Shown here piece after piece: positions 46,447 through 50,363 of a stretch of 64,000 bases of DNA. Under the pieces are notes generated by a model. That model was not told the DNA's origin and did not search any database. It saw only the letters and a list, made by a program, of their open reading frames with translations. The stretch covers positions 227,429-291,428 of the forward strand of contig QMRC01000003.1 of the NCBI GenBank assembly GCA_003649205.1. Direction: 5' to 3'. Origin of the DNA: Thermoprotei archaeon. Its GTDB lineage: Archaea; Thermoproteota; Thermoprotei; Thermoproteales; B15-G16. The stretch's first letter is position 1. Every line of letters starts with the position of its first letter. The translations under genes were made by a program, and so were the position numbers.

Positions 46447-48669
46447 GTGGAGATCTCGGGAAGAACCATGTGGTACACCCTACCAATCAAGCTCCTAACC
46501 CTAACACTACTCACACTCTACACATTCCCCGGTACCTGGCTCAGCTACATCTCCCTCACCGAAGGAACTCCCACGTACCTCGTACTCGCTATTCCGTACT
46601 GGTTACTCTGGTTCTTTACCTTCCCCAAGTTCCTTCATTTCCTGTGTCTTTACCTGACTTCTCGTCCTCGTTGTGTGGATCGTGGTGTGTATGTTTGTGG
46701 TCATGGTTTGTGGTCCTGTATTCTGCTCGTGTTTAGGGTGAGGAATTTCTCTCATGTTCCTGATGTCACTACGTTGTTTAGGTGTGTTCCCTATGTTGCT
46801 AAGATCTTCTTAGTGCAGGTCTACGGTAGGGTTTTTCTCATTGTTGAGTTGCATAGGTTCTTCTGTTCTCGTAGTTGGGTTGAGGGTGTTGTTCGTTACT
46901 GTGCTGGTGTTGTCTCTGGTCTTGGTCTTGATGTTGAGTTGAGTGATTTCGATTTTGTTCTTGGTGATTGGTTTTGGGTTTCTGTCTTGTCCTCTATTGG
47001 TTTTCGGAGGGGTGATGGTTCTGGATGTTCTTCTGGTGTTGGTGTTAGGGTTTTGAGTAGGGGTGGTTGCTATGTTCTTGTTCTTGAGAGGTGTGGGTTG
47101 AGGGATTTGTCTCGTTTCTACTCTGGTGTTTGGAGGGGGTTGTTTGGTTGGTTTCGTTCTCTTGGTCGTGGTGGTGCTAGGGATTCGTTTGTTGAGGGTG
47201 TTTGTGGTTACTTTGTTAGGAGGTGTGAGTGTGTTGTTAGGGTTGGTCTTTACTCTGTTGTGTTTGATTGTAGGTTGAGTGGTTTGCTTAGGTTTTTGCT
47301 CTGTGTTTGGTGGAGGAGGTTTGTTCATCAGTTGTGTGCTCGTGAGTGTGTTGTTGGTGATGTTGTTTCTTCTCTTGTTTCTCAGCTTCTACGTAATCTA
47401 GAGCTCGATGTTGGTGGTGGGGGTGTTGTGCTTGGTAGGAGGGTTCTTGGGTTTAGGGTTTGTGGTGATGCTGTGTACTTTGTTCCTGATGGTCATACTC
47501 TCGTTGTTGGTATGACTGGTAGTGGTAAGTCTAGTACTGTTGCTTACTTGGTGAGGGAGTTGTCTAGGTGTTCTAGGGTTTTGGTCATTGACTTCGTGGG
47601 TGCTTTCGTTAATTTGCCTGGTGCTGTTGTTCTTGAGCCTCCTCGAGATCTCGCTCTTGATCCTCTTCAGCTTGGTTTCTGGAGGGGTATTGAGGTTGTT
47701 GAGGATGCTCTGGTGTACTGCTATGGTTTTGAGAGGGGTTCGTTCTCTCCTATTGTTGTTGAGGTTCTTACTAGGGCTAGGGATAGGGTTCGTGAGCTGT
47801 GTCTTCGTGAGCTTGTTGATGTGTTGAGGGGGATGTACTTTGAGTTTCCTGAGGGTAGTGAGTACAGGTCTGCTGTTGCTGCTGCTTTGAGGAGGTTGGA
47901 GCCTCTTGTTAGGTACTTTAGACCTGGTGACTTTACGTTGAGTGATCTCGGTTGTGGTGTTTACGTTGTTGATTTGAGTGGTATGGATTCTGAGGTTGCT
48001 AAGGCTGTCTTTGCTCTTACGTTCATGGAGTTTCTCTATAGGTTGGGGAGGTTGGGTGTTGGTACTGTTCTCGTTGTTGATGAAGTTCATAGGGTTGCTC
48101 CGGTACATGCTCGTGGTGAGTCTATTCTCGTTAAGTTGGCTAGGGAGGGTAGGAAGTGTGGTCTCTACCTAATTCTCATTGATCAGTCTATTGCTAAGGT
48201 GAGTGATGTTGTTCGTGGTCAGTGTCGTAATGTCTTGTTCTTCAGGCTCACTGAACCTAGTGAGTTGAGAATTGTTGAGGAGTATGGTATTGAGCCTAGA
48301 GAGGTTCAGACTTTGAGGATTGGTGAGTGTCTGTACTACAGGGACGGTCTCTACGCTAAGGTTAAGACGAATTACCTTGAGCTTGCTGCTCCTAGGGGGT
48401 TGAAGTTGAGGAGGGTTGACTTAAGTAAGTTGCGTGAATTAGCTAGGAAGTACGGTGTGCCTAGGGGTAAGAGAGAGTACTTGATCCAGTTCGTGCAAGA
48501 GCACGATGTTGAGGACGTAATTAAGTTACTGAGGGAGAGGTCATACCCAATATTTGCTAGGTCAGGTAGGTTGACGAACTTCGGGAAGGCAGTTCTAGAG
48601 TACTATGGATTGAGTGTCGATGTACCTGAAGTAAAGGAGAGTGGTTATCAAGGTTCTTCAGGTGAGTGA
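46447..48669 (+). CDS. Membrane-anchored HerA/FtsK/VirB4-like (DUF87-type) ATPase
   Basis: N-terminal TM helices; HTLVVGMTGSGKS Walker A, VLVIDFVG, VLVVDEVH Walker B, REGRKCG arginine finger, IDQS. Confidence 0.85.
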   Translation: MEISGRTMWYTLPIKLLTLTLLTLYTFPGTWLSYISLTEGTPTYLVLAIPYWLLWFFTFPKFLHFLCLYLTSRPRCVDRGVYVCGHGLWSCILLVFRVRNFSHVPDVTTLFRCVPYVAKIFLVQVYGRVFLIVELHRFFCSRSWVEGVVRYCAGVVSGLGLDVELSDFDFVLGDWFWVSVLSSIGFRRGDGSGCSSGVGVRVLSRGGCYVLVLERCGLRDLSRFYSGVWRGLFGWFRSLGRGGARDSFVEGVCGYFVRRCECVVRVGLYSVVFDCRLSGLLRFLLCVWWRRFVHQLCARECVVGDVVSSLVSQLLRNLELDVGGGGVVLGRRVLGFRVCGDAVYFVPDGHTLVVGMTGSGKSSTVAYLVRELSRCSRVLVIDFVGAFVNLPGAVVLEPPRDLALDPLQLGFWRGIEVVEDALVYCYGFERGSFSPIVVEVLTRARDRVRELCLRELVDVLRGMYFEFPEGSEYRSAVAAALRRLEPLVRYFRPGDFTLSDLGCGVYVVDLSGMDSEVAKAVFALTFMEFLYRLGRLGVGTVLVVDEVHRVAPVHARGESILVKLAREGRKCGLYLILIDQSIAKVSDVVRGQCRNVLFFRLTEPSELRIVEEYGIEPREVQTLRIGECLYYRDGLYAKVKTNYLELAAPRGLKLRRVDLSKLRELARKYGVPRGKREYLIQFVQEHDVEDVIKLLRERSYPIFARSGRLTNFGKAVLEYYGLSVDVPEVKESGYQGSSGE

Positions 48670-48675
48670 AGGTGG

Positions 48676-48796
48676 ATGAAACCCGACGTCGATAAGGCGT
48701 CGGGTGGATCCCCAGAGGTTAGGTCCGATGAAGGGGGTTATAGGTCCGGAGGCACTGCCGAGGAGGGACCGAAGCCGGGTCCTGACCGGTCCGAGA
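48676..48796 (+). ncRNA. Structured 5' RNA of the TnpB-like locus (hairpin, two K-turn hairpins, long-range pairing arm)
   Basis: ACCCGACGTC-GATAA-GGCGTCGGGT; CCCC-AGA-GG...CC-GATGA-A-GGGG; GGTCC-GGA-GGC-ACT-GCC-GAGGA-G-GGACC; arm 48772-48794. Confidence 0.65.
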
Positions 48797-48798
48797 GA

Positions 48799-49611
48799 AT
48801 GCAGCTTGTGGTTGGGTTTGACTACAATGTGAGGTCAGTGATTGCTGCGTACAGAGTTCATGATCGAGAGATGTTGCTTGACGTCTGTAGCGTAGTCAGT
48901 GAACGAGGTTTTGTGCCGAAGCTTATTGATGTTGGTGAGGGTGAGTACTACGTAGTGATTAGGGGTGTGGTAGAGGTGCCGAATCTAGTTAGCTACGTTA
49001 AGGAGGGTTTGAGGAAGTTCGTTGAGAAGTACCCGTTCGTTATGAGGTACAGAGATGTCAAGGTTGAGAGAGGGTCATGGGCTTGGAGGGAGATTAAGAG
49101 ATCCTGTAGACCGATACCGAGTGTATTCAGCTACGTCATTGAGCTAGTTGAGGAGTACGGTGTTGTACCGAATTGGTTGTTTGTGTACGATCTAGAGCTG
49201 TATCTGAGGAAGAAGGTTAGGAGATGGAGGAAGTGGTACGTAGTTGAGTTGAGGAAGCTACTGAATAGGTTAATGGCTTGTCTAAATAGGTTGAGCGAGA
49301 AGTACGACGTAATTGCGAAGATTGAGTGGTTACCGTATGTCGATGTGCGTAGTGAGGTAACTGATAGGGTGAGGGGTTGGAGGTACACGAAGTTGATGAG
49401 GGCATTAGTTCACTGCACGAGGAAGGGTATTAGGGTGGTTGCTATTGAGCCAGCTGGTACATCGAGGTACTGTCCGGTGTGTGATTCAGTAACTGAGGTA
49501 CTGAGCTATAGAGAGTTGAGATGTACTAAGTGCGGTCGTGTGTGGGATAGAGATGAGATGGCTGCGATTAATGTAGCGAGGAGTAGAGCTGTTAAGTATG
49601 TTCTGAAGTAG
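48799..49611 (+). CDS. N-terminally truncated TnpB/Cas12f-like RuvC + Zn-finger nuclease (270 aa)
   Basis: RuvC-I VVGFDYN at residues 4-10, RuvC-II KIEWL, GIRVVAIEPAGTSRYCPVC...CTKCG, RuvC-III DRDEMAAINVA. Confidence 0.85.
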   Translation: MQLVVGFDYNVRSVIAAYRVHDREMLLDVCSVVSERGFVPKLIDVGEGEYYVVIRGVVEVPNLVSYVKEGLRKFVEKYPFVMRYRDVKVERGSWAWREIKRSCRPIPSVFSYVIELVEEYGVVPNWLFVYDLELYLRKKVRRWRKWYVVELRKLLNRLMACLNRLSEKYDVIAKIEWLPYVDVRSEVTDRVRGWRYTKLMRALVHCTRKGIRVVAIEPAGTSRYCPVCDSVTEVLSYRELRCTKCGRVWDRDEMAAINVARSRAVKYVLK

Positions 49612-49635
49612 CGTAGTGCTAGTGCTCAGTTGTTC

Positions 49636-49843
49636 AGTGGCCCTGAGTCCTGGTCAGGGCTCGGGTTGATCTGTAAATTGATGAGGCCCGGGCCCTGGCC
49701 GGGATGATGAGGGGGCTTGGTGAGGAAGCGGAAGATGACTAAGGACTTGGCGACCGCAGACGCGGCGCCAAGCACCGGGGCCCTCAGTGTAGCTCAGTGC
49801 TGATACTTAAGTGTTTCGGACCGGTCAGGGCCCGGGGCTTTTT
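49636..49843 (+). ncRNA. Structured 3' RNA (omega/reRNA-like) with K-turns
   Basis: 19-bp stem 49648-49666/49686-49704 with four G-U pairs, bracketed by CTGA/ATGATGA and TTGA/TTGATGA K-turn boxes; hairpin CTTGGCG..CGCCAAG; arm 49816-49840; T-tract. Confidence 0.7.
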
Positions 49844-49845
49844 GC
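49836..49845 (+). terminator. Oligo-T terminator candidate
   Basis: TTTTT directly after the closing arm of the structured RNA. Confidence 0.45.
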
Positions 49846-49946
49846 ATTGTTTAGGTGTCTGTTCTTGAGCTAGGTCTATGGTATTTCTGTTCTGTGCTTC
49901 TTCATGTATGTTGTCTAGACTTATTTAGCTGTTAGGTCTGTGTTAT

Positions 49947-50363
49947 ATGGTAGGTGGGTATTTCTTGGGTGAGAGGGGGCTTTCGGCGAGTGATATTGTT
50001 GCTCTTTTCGAGAAGGATCCTTCAGCTCTTAAGAAGTTAGCTGAGCTTCTCGTTACGGTACCGGACATAAGGTTGGCAATAGTTGAGGGTGTGATGAGGG
50101 AGGTAGCAACGAAGAGAGATCTTGAAGCTCTTAGGAAGGAGCTACAGGAGTACATTGACAAGAGAATAGCTGAAGTAAGAAGTGAAATAGCGGAAATAAG
50201 GAGTGAGTTAGGTAGATTAGGTGATAGAGCAGCGAGATTAGAGGCAAGAGTAGCTAGATTGGAGGGACAAGTTAGTTTATTGATCAAGATCTTCATCGCG
50301 TTTAACGTACCAATCCTCATAGGGATAATAGGGATCTTACTCAAGATGGTACTAGCACCCTAG
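49947..50363 (+). CDS. PaREP-type coiled-coil protein with C-terminal TM helix
   Basis: VATKRDL motif, heptad repeats, hydrophobic C-terminus. Confidence 0.75.
   Translation: MVGGYFLGERGLSASDIVALFEKDPSALKKLAELLVTVPDIRLAIVEGVMREVATKRDLEALRKELQEYIDKRIAEVRSEIAEIRSELGRLGDRAARLEARVARLEGQVSLLIKIFIAFNVPILIGIIGILLKMVLAP

Follow-up and report, generated by a model that had tools for sequence, protein, structure and literature searches.

For TnpB nucleases, which process their own mRNA, it is established that the messenger RNA and the RNA scaffold come from one transcript (available sections of PMC10278001), and in the IStrons a single tnpB transcript adopts mutually exclusive folds that yield either an intron or a guide RNA (available sections of PMC10690162). 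IStrons are TnpB elements of the IS607/IS605 type that include a group I intron. By analogy, they are the closest known case to the locus described here, which lies in a window of 64,000 nt (the whole stretch of DNA analysed) from contig QMRC01000003.1 of a Thermoprotei archaeon, and which includes the gene for a miniature TnpB-like nuclease, a structured RNA immediately downstream of it, and an inverted repeat that brackets both. Two further kinds of RNA are relevant to the comparison. Archaeal box C/D sRNAs have RUGAUGA and CUGA motifs that are brought together by a short terminal stem, and total ~50-60 nt. They are kink-turn RNAs to which L7Ae binds, with C, D′, C′ and D boxes and guides of 10-12 nt. 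In the fold-back inhibition of IS10 and IS50, the translation start region of an element's own gene is base-paired to sequence from close to that element's end, in local helices of tens of nt at the 5′ end only.

Inverted repeat and predicted competing folds

In a preliminary description of this DNA, the nuclease open reading frame (ORF) was proposed to be looped out of an RNA closed by a long-range stem. When the sequence is read at the positions of the two arms, designated A (left) and D (right), they pair as described, in a helix of 20 contiguous pairs including one G-U, followed by a 2-nt bulge (49836-49837) and 3 more pairs (AAG with CUU). U(48780):G on the + strand is the sole exception to Watson-Crick pairing. 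GAGA (48795-48798) separates the left arm from the ATG at 48799, and TTTTT follows the right arm. The repeat search reported the arms as 48775-48794 and 49816-49835 (20 nt, 95% complementary, 1021 nt apart), and this pair was the top non-palindromic repeat among the 8 inverted pairs of at least 18 nt, no more than 2.5 kb apart, in the window. The strict local-complementarity score of A:D is 40, a value reached by none of 300 dinucleotide-preserving shuffles of both flanks (mean 16.5, maximum 24). A permissive score was dropped because shuffles attained the score of the window, and RNAduplex run on the whole flanks was uninformative as it pairs everything. The inverted repeat is far beyond chance and is uniquely placed. 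Allowing up to 2 mismatches, the 15-mer CCGGTCAGGGCCCGG has 4 sites in the 2.07-Mb assembly, all within this locus, with A and C in one sense and B′ (a D-like segment of the downstream RNA) and D in the other; each site is counted twice in the assembly, the contig being a palindrome (see below). A genome-wide repeat was also considered and is ruled out, as the arm motif is confined to this locus.

The minimum-free-energy fold of 48670-49850 (RNAfold) includes the A:D stem, and the arms are able, in silico, to close an RNA from which the ORF is looped out. Right arm D has a second, local partner, segment C, which is 19 nt long and 89% complementary to it. A partition-function calculation on the whole 1181-nt RNA (48670-49850) gives A:D a probability of 0.98, 0.96 and 0.95 at 37, 75 and 90 °C, respectively, and C:D a probability of 0; in the full-length minimum-energy fold C is paired with B′. 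The 3′ RNA folded alone forms hairpin H1 and the C:D closing stem, with z-scores of −5.0 and −4.3. Duplex energies in the sense strand are −52.0 (A:D), −48.9 (C:D) and −48.8 (B:C) kcal/mol, and the antisense duplexes are weaker, at −44.4, −37.0 and −30.2 kcal/mol.

Ten further loci of the nuclease family were obtained. In the pattern scans, A1 was too diverse, a scan of the genome contigs with the single protein gave none, and A2 gave one locus in the genome contigs; the A3 scan found 26 loci in metagenome contigs, ~10 of them full-length, and none in viral contigs. The downstream RNA is conserved among them. The motif GATGATGA is found 3′ of the stop codon in the window and in L064, L065, L069, L072 and L073, with GGGATGAGG in L070 and GTGATGATG in a paralogue from the same genome as the window. 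The spacing between the C-box-like GAUGAUGA and a D-box-like CUGA is 80-97 nt in 7 loci (the window, L064, L065, L069, L070, L072 and L073) and 66 nt in the divergent paralogue. Most of the 3′ RNA region is lost from L067, L068 and L034. These motifs, which we take to match the C and D box consensus, suggest a kink-turn. An Rfam scan (E <= 1) gave only a weak C/D match, to sR18 (E 0.12), which at 20.5 bits is below the gathering score of 45.

A MAFFT alignment of the 3′ RNA misplaced the C box and gave 0 consensus pairs, and single-sequence folds were compared instead. A common layout was seen in 5 of the 7 loci folded (the window, L065, L069, L072 and L073). It consists of internal hairpins, a purine-rich spacer that is left unpaired, and a closing stem in which bases immediately 5′ of the first motif pair with bases 3′ of the second. 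The closing-stem sequences differ between loci: CCCUGGCCGG / CCGGUCAGGG in the window, GGCGCGUGG / CCACGCGCC in L069, GAGG / CCUC in L065, CCCGGGU / ACCCG in L072, and CUCCCAGGC / GCC..GGGAG in L073. In another sample, X3, one deletion and five listed substitutions are clustered at 49715-49733, in the purine-rich spacer after the C-box-like motif. The X3 contig over 49685-49826 has 7 substitutions, of which 5 are listed, all in that cluster, and a change near the contig ends is possible. The segment may be fast-evolving and possibly guide-like, judging from this cluster.

The arrangement of the window has one parallel. L033, on a contig of genome G086 from the same class, encodes a protein 21% identical to the nuclease of the window and has a 24-nt inverted repeat (92% complementary) around leader, ORF and 3′ RNA, with an arm sequence unrelated to that of the window. 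Its strict score of 45 was reached by none of 300 shuffles. The complementarity spans ~70 nt, with 67 long-range pairs in the fold and a duplex energy of −110.5 kcal/mol in the sense strand versus −84.7 kcal/mol in the antisense strand. When the full-length L033 RNA is folded, the leader is the partner of the 3′ strands (probability mass 1.00 and 0.80 at 37 °C, 0.90 and 0.73 at 85 °C); when the 3′ RNA is folded by itself, the same strand finds its partner locally, just past the stop codon (0.71). In both the window and L033 the right arm starts inside the conserved terminal motif (..UUAAG.G.UUCGGAC) and continues into variable sequence. In these models, the two-state design recurs in one distant homologue. 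Positions of the features are given in Table 1.

Table 1. Features of the nuclease locus, numbered from the first nucleotide of the window.
Feature	Position	Strand	Basis or remark
5′ GC-rich structured domain	48674-48771	+	GGATGAAACCCGAC (48674-48687), hairpin 48681-48705, CCGATGAAGGGGG, then GACCGAAG just before the left arm
Left arm A, AAGCCGGGTCCTGACCGGTCCGA	48772-48794	+	4 nt upstream of the start codon; 5′ strand of the long-range stem
Gene for 270-aa miniature TnpB-like protein	48799-49611	+	Pfam, family alignment, profile comparison
Hairpin H1 (GGCCCTGA / GTCAGGGC)	49639-49665	+	3′ strand and next bases form B′ (49649-49665), which is D-like and can pair with C or A
Segment C	49684-49702	+	Local 5′ strand of the 3′ RNA closing stem; direct-repeat-like to arm A
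C-box-like motif GATGATGA	49703-49710	+	Motif search across family loci
Internal hairpin of 3′ RNA (CTTGGCG.CCGC / GCGG.CGCCAAG)	49746-49772	+	Folds
D-box-like CTGA	49800-49803	+	94 nt after the start of the C-box motif
Conserved terminal motif ACTTAAGTGTTTCGGACC	49805-49822	+	Right arm begins within it; similar motif at the same place in L033, L070, L069 and L065, by eye
Right arm D, TCGGACCGGTCAGGGCCCGGGGCTT	49816-49840	+	Supplies the 3′ strand to two stems, local with C and long-range with A
T5 tract	49839-49843	+	Possible archaeal terminator
Strain-variation breakpoint	49851-49852		Contigs of three other samples match to 49851, then diverge

Proposed competition between folds and its alternatives

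The preferred reading, to which a probability of roughly 0.4 is given, is a competition at the RNA level in which arm A mimics the 5′ strand of the closing stem, so that a panhandle and a free scaffold would be alternative states. The locus would encode a miniature TnpB-like nuclease and a conserved structured RNA downstream with a C/D-box-like, probably kink-turn, motif, and in this lineage the leader arm A would have come to mimic segment C. Because arm A mimics C, a transcript that spans leader, ORF and T-tract would fold as a panhandle, in which A pairs with D and C pairs with B′. In that state the 3′ scaffold would be unclosed and the 23 nt just upstream of the AUG would be double-stranded. 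A 3′ RNA made or freed alone would form the canonical scaffold, with H1 and the C:D closing stem. The likely role would be to set the balance of coding mRNA against free scaffold or guide RNA, and damped translation or protection of both transcript ends is a possible further role. Co-transcription of the leader, binding of the RNA by the protein and a regulatory effect are all supposed by this reading. The mRNA-versus-scaffold switch put forward in the preliminary description is plausible in so far as the two-state design holds in silico and recurs in L033, and it does not extend to most of the family.

Several observations weigh against competition between RNA folds. A long-range repeat above shuffles (strict score) is lacking in 8 of 10 family loci, namely L064, L065, L067, L069, L070, L072, L073 and the paralogue in the same genome, and is found in the window and L033. 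When the 3′ tail was used as the sole query, two loci were marginal, L069 with a perfect 12-mer (score 24, shuffle maximum 23) and L070 (score 27, shuffle maximum 24); L065, L072 and L073 were not above shuffles. The local stem of L070 is stronger than the distal one (−59.5 versus −52.2), with no long-range pair in the full fold. The left arm is 4 nt before the ORF in the window versus ~150 nt upstream in L033, where an A/T-rich, TATA-like stretch was noted by eye directly 5′ of the arm, so part of that arm may be untranscribed. Some 5′-3′ pairs are present in 7 of the 8 loci folded, and the ends of any 1.2-kb RNA tend to pair in minimum-energy folds. The energy advantage of the sense strand may simply come from the C-poor coding strand. 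The G-U pair and the bulge, previously taken as a sign of RNA pairing, are weak as such, since a C-poor coding strand alone favours G-U in the sense strand. No listed change falls in arm A in the contigs of samples X3 and X5, or in arm D in those of X2, X3 and X4, all of which cover the arms partly; with no listed change in the arms, the close relatives give no evidence of compensatory change. Strong 5′-3′ inverted repeats are also carried by 2 of 17 ordinary TnpB loci in related genomes (L004, 36 nt; L005, 16 nt; both A/T-rich), so 5′-3′ repeats may be a DNA-level trait of these elements. The L004 and L005 repeats connect the region upstream of tnpB with the omega-RNA spacer just past the stop codon. 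A further part of the preliminary description, that the stem joins 5′ and 3′ structured domains into one RNA, does not fit the layout, as the conserved 5′ hairpin domain (48674-48771) sits outside the stem and the right arm is in the first place part of the 3′ RNA closing stem, a feature conserved across the family.

The first alternative, which is judged unlikely, is that the arms act in DNA, as terminal or subterminal inverted repeats or as a single-stranded-DNA hairpin of a mobile unit that comprises gene and RNA. In favour of this, both the ORF and the 3′ RNA are enclosed by the repeat, and three other samples share the sequence only as far as 49851, which is 11 nt beyond the right arm. 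In the X2 contig, 2081 other letters stand between 49851 and 49979, where the window has 127 nt, and the X3 and X4 contigs are loose ends with the same continuation. The L033 repeat is the outermost conserved feature of its locus and adjoins a tRNA gene, the repeats of the two ordinary TnpB loci are of the same 5′-3′ kind, and the region around the window locus resembles a variable island beside tRNA-Phe with ATPases and nucleases. Against a role in DNA, no direct repeat or target-site duplication flanking the arms was found when the sequence of the window and of L033 was read, there is no transposase gene nearby, and no TnpA, multiple copies or element ends were found. All 291,428 bp of the contig, C3, read the same on both strands, making it a perfect palindrome; the window corresponds to C3:1-64000 on the minus strand. 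The palindrome is an assembly artefact that doubles every feature. The element is single-copy because its apparent second genomic copy was rejected as an artefact of this contig, and the genome otherwise has only a 26%-identical paralogue on contig C1. No empty site was found in 30 related genomes, in which the best relative of the HerA-like gene upstream is 31% identical. What is seen of a terminal-inverted-repeat transposon is the repeat, in a single copy, without a flanking direct repeat or an empty site. In addition, the conserved 5′ hairpin domain of the window lies outside the repeat, the right arm belongs to a conserved RNA stem with a local partner, and a protein-bound terminal repeat would not look like the complementarity of L033, which runs over ~70 nt and includes bulges and G-U pairs.

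The left arm could also be a functionless by-product of a local duplication of the closing-stem strand, an explanation that is regarded as improbable. Arm A and segment C are direct-repeat-like, as are B′ and D, and segment C and its surroundings are missing from other family members, which points to local duplication in this lineage; most family loci lack a long-range stem. Against this explanation, the independent locus L033 has the same arrangement in unrelated sequence. The arm is also intact, and its 23 pairs include a single wobble and a single bulge. In the closely related locus L071, 42 of 2301 positions differ and none of these is in 48670-48798, where ~2.5 would be expected (flanking coding DNA, 1.9%). 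No change was seen in the stretches covered by L071, X3 and X5, a sample too shallow for a statement on selection at ~2.5 changes expected per 129 nt.

A third possibility involves the 5′ domain. In the fold of 48660-48810 a 10-bp hairpin is present, and the region as a whole reaches a z-score of only −1.75. The CCCGA..TCGGGT hairpin is also found upstream of the ORF in L064, L065 and L036, and the paralogue in the same genome has no GC-rich 5′ domain. The 14-mer GGATGAAACCCGAC is shared with the omega-RNA region of the ordinary TnpB loci L017 (14/14, E 0.005), L016, L013 and L057. Within 48674-48773, the GACCGAAG end resembles the GACCCGAAC that precedes the flank in those ~400-aa TnpB elements of related genomes, at a similar spacing of ~95-100 nt. 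Elsewhere in the genome, contig C16 has a second HerA-like gene (34% identical), and the sequence after it is GC-rich, with GAUGA-plus-hairpin and AAUGAGGGGAUGAG motifs; this region lies ~80-390 nt after the HerA-like stop, and the contig ends 387 nt past that stop.

From the shared 14-mer, the similar end and the matching spacing, the 5′ domain could be taken for an omega-RNA-like scaffold with arm A at the guide position, targeting its own 3′ end as RNA or DNA, and arm A does match this locus only in the genome. This is considered very unlikely. The similarity is confined to short motifs, the upstream part of the scaffold would fall inside the HerA-like coding sequence, and no complementarity to the 3′ flanks was seen, by eye, in the segment that follows the CCGAA motif of L064 and L065. 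To our knowledge, there is no adjacent-motif requirement described for this nuclease family.

Bulge-helix-bulge motifs have two 3-nt bulges separated by 4 bp. The last alternative, a helix for processing, excision or circularisation like those of archaeal rRNA or bulge-helix-bulge introns, shares with them the geometry of a long helix around ~1 kb and is highly improbable, as the stem has a single 2-nt bulge on one strand in place of those two, no intron family is found in Rfam at E <= 1, and the upstream gene has its own stop and the downstream gene its own start. Circularisation or processing, which the preliminary description had also raised, is unsupported: nothing points to either, and no bulge-helix-bulge motif is visible by eye.

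The nuclease family and its surroundings

The only Pfam family matching the ORF is the Cas12f1-like_TNB zinc-ribbon family (PF07282; 1.9e-13). A word-based search of 5.8 billion proteins found no match except the protein itself. A full HMMER scan of 1.84 billion representatives gave 210 matches at E <= 0.001, and among the 150 matches listed 7 align along essentially their entire length, namely P0002-P0006, P0008 and P0001, the last being the record of the protein itself. The full-length relatives are 265-293 aa and 27-32% identical, and the remaining listed matches are ordinary TnpBs or fragments that match the C-terminal 60-130 residues. Searches of the ESM Atlas gave TNB-domain clusters only. 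The score against NCBIfam guided_TnpB is 48.6 bits, under the cut-off of 100, and solved TnpB and Cas12f chains match the nuclease at 2e-10.

Alignment A1 includes 9 sequences, of which P0007 and P0011 are matched in their C-terminal halves only. Residues invariant in all nine are G6, D8, N10, K174, E176, L178, T221, S222, C228, C242, C245, R251 and D252. The GxDxN motif (RuvC-I) is at residues 6-10, at the very N-terminus, with the same consensus as RuvC-I of ordinary TnpB. D8, E176 and D252, present in 9/9, make up a D-E-D catalytic triad as assigned by motif. In full-length TnpB, a WED and REC region precedes RuvC-I. Residues 129-270 of the nuclease align to positions 202-355 of ordinary TnpB (hhalign, probability 99.7%), and residues 1-128 have no match in ordinary TnpB by profile comparison, NCBIfam or the solved chains, so that no N-terminal WED/REC architecture was recognised. 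The family keeps the RuvC-II, zinc-ribbon and RuvC-III core of TnpB without its N-terminal half. Between RuvC-I and RuvC-II there are ~120 residues of unassigned fold, compared with ~25 in ordinary TnpB. Sizes in the family range from 260 to 293 aa.

The start was set at ATG 48799 because of the alignment with the family. A database call of 311 aa begins at an in-frame ATG at 48676, and the 41 residues this adds (48676-48798) are low-complexity, unconserved in the family, and overlap the GC-rich structured 5′ domain; the N-terminal extension is probably spurious.

The nuclease family is rare. Full-length or partial members were found by profile search in 4 other genomes among 119 in the class, and a member in 1 other genome among 400 in a sample of the phylum. 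One further locus, L037 (G094:C38), matches only profile positions 94-194, and its 284-aa frame continues into unrelated sequence, which may reflect an insertion or fusion. Literature on TnpB with L7Ae, TnpB in Thermoproteota, Pyrobaculum, box sRNA and orfB, including the available part of PMC10691335, gave no account of the family or the stem; supplementary tables, a possible place for such a clade, were outside this scope.

The nuclease gene is flanked by genes for a HerA/FtsK-like ATPase (46447-48669) and a coiled-coil DUF7310-like protein (49947-50363), in a region that follows tRNA-Phe and is rich in ATPases and nucleases. A HerA-like gene is also upstream in L069, and coiled-coil genes are downstream in L072 and L073. 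The gene downstream in L033 is coiled-coil by eye only, with no significant coiled-coil match. The neighbourhood recurs in these loci, and the mini nuclease may be part of a larger integrated element. The 26%-identical paralogue in the same genome (C1:186136-187030) and L027 (G001) adjoin tRNA-Asp in both genomes of the genus. The shorter 3′ RNA of the paralogue has GUGAUGA..CUGA and a 9-nt CAGUCCGCC complementary to the anticodon arm of the neighbouring tRNA, which could be chance.

Comparison with known systems

Apart from the stem, the nuclease family is notable for having the TnpB catalytic core without the N-terminal half, paired with a conserved C/D-box-like RNA. The questions it touches are how far an RNA-guided nuclease can shrink and whether kink-turn RNAs are connected to the guide RNAs of transposons. 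A real switch would be an archaeal, intron-free counterpart of the mRNA-versus-guide conflict of IStrons, and a very small RNA-guided nuclease system would be regulating itself through one helix. If the stem is a DNA feature or a by-product, the finding shrinks to an unusual member of a known gene family. A wider proposal is that the ~270-aa RuvC/zinc-ribbon proteins are a new nuclease family that uses the downstream kink-turn RNA, and perhaps the upstream RNA domain, with a panhandle switch in some lineages, in which the leader would invade the closing stem of the scaffold and make one transcript either a silenced mRNA with protected ends or a free scaffold, and, in its boldest form, arm A guiding to its own 3′ end; this is put forward as distinctly doubtful.

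Like box C/D sRNAs, the 3′ RNA has C/D-like motifs with a closing stem that appears to co-vary among loci, and unlike them its boxes are 80-97 nt apart with two internal hairpins. Its best score is below the Rfam gathering score and no C′/D′ pair was identified in it. As in IS10 and IS50, the translation-start region of the element's own gene would be paired, and here the helix spans 1 kb and uses the 3′ RNA. No group I intron, IStron or bulge-helix-bulge structure was recognised, there being no Rfam intron family at E <= 1, one 2-nt bulge and complete flanking genes; the search did not extend to a ribozyme core split by the ORF.

Canonical TnpB scaffolds are followed by a guide from flanking DNA and lie within a transposon of defined ends, with TnpA in cis or in trans. 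Both the canonical omega-RNA of TnpB (IS200/IS605) and the RNA here are structured and are encoded in the same strand as the nuclease gene, at and beyond its 3′ end. The RNA here differs in that it starts past the stop codon, has C/D-box-like motifs at fixed spacing, and ends in a T-tract, with a 3′ guide from flanking DNA not evident, and in that the leader can invade its closing stem. The nuclease is ~130 aa shorter than ordinary TnpB. The likeness to IStrons, as set out in the available sections of PMC10690162, PMC4227781 and PMC13521648, is that one fold uses both ends of the element and the other is a 3′ guide-RNA scaffold. The present locus is archaeal, without a group I intron signature (Rfam scan) and with no host exons to rejoin, and its long-range element consists of a simple helix, a mimic of the closing stem.

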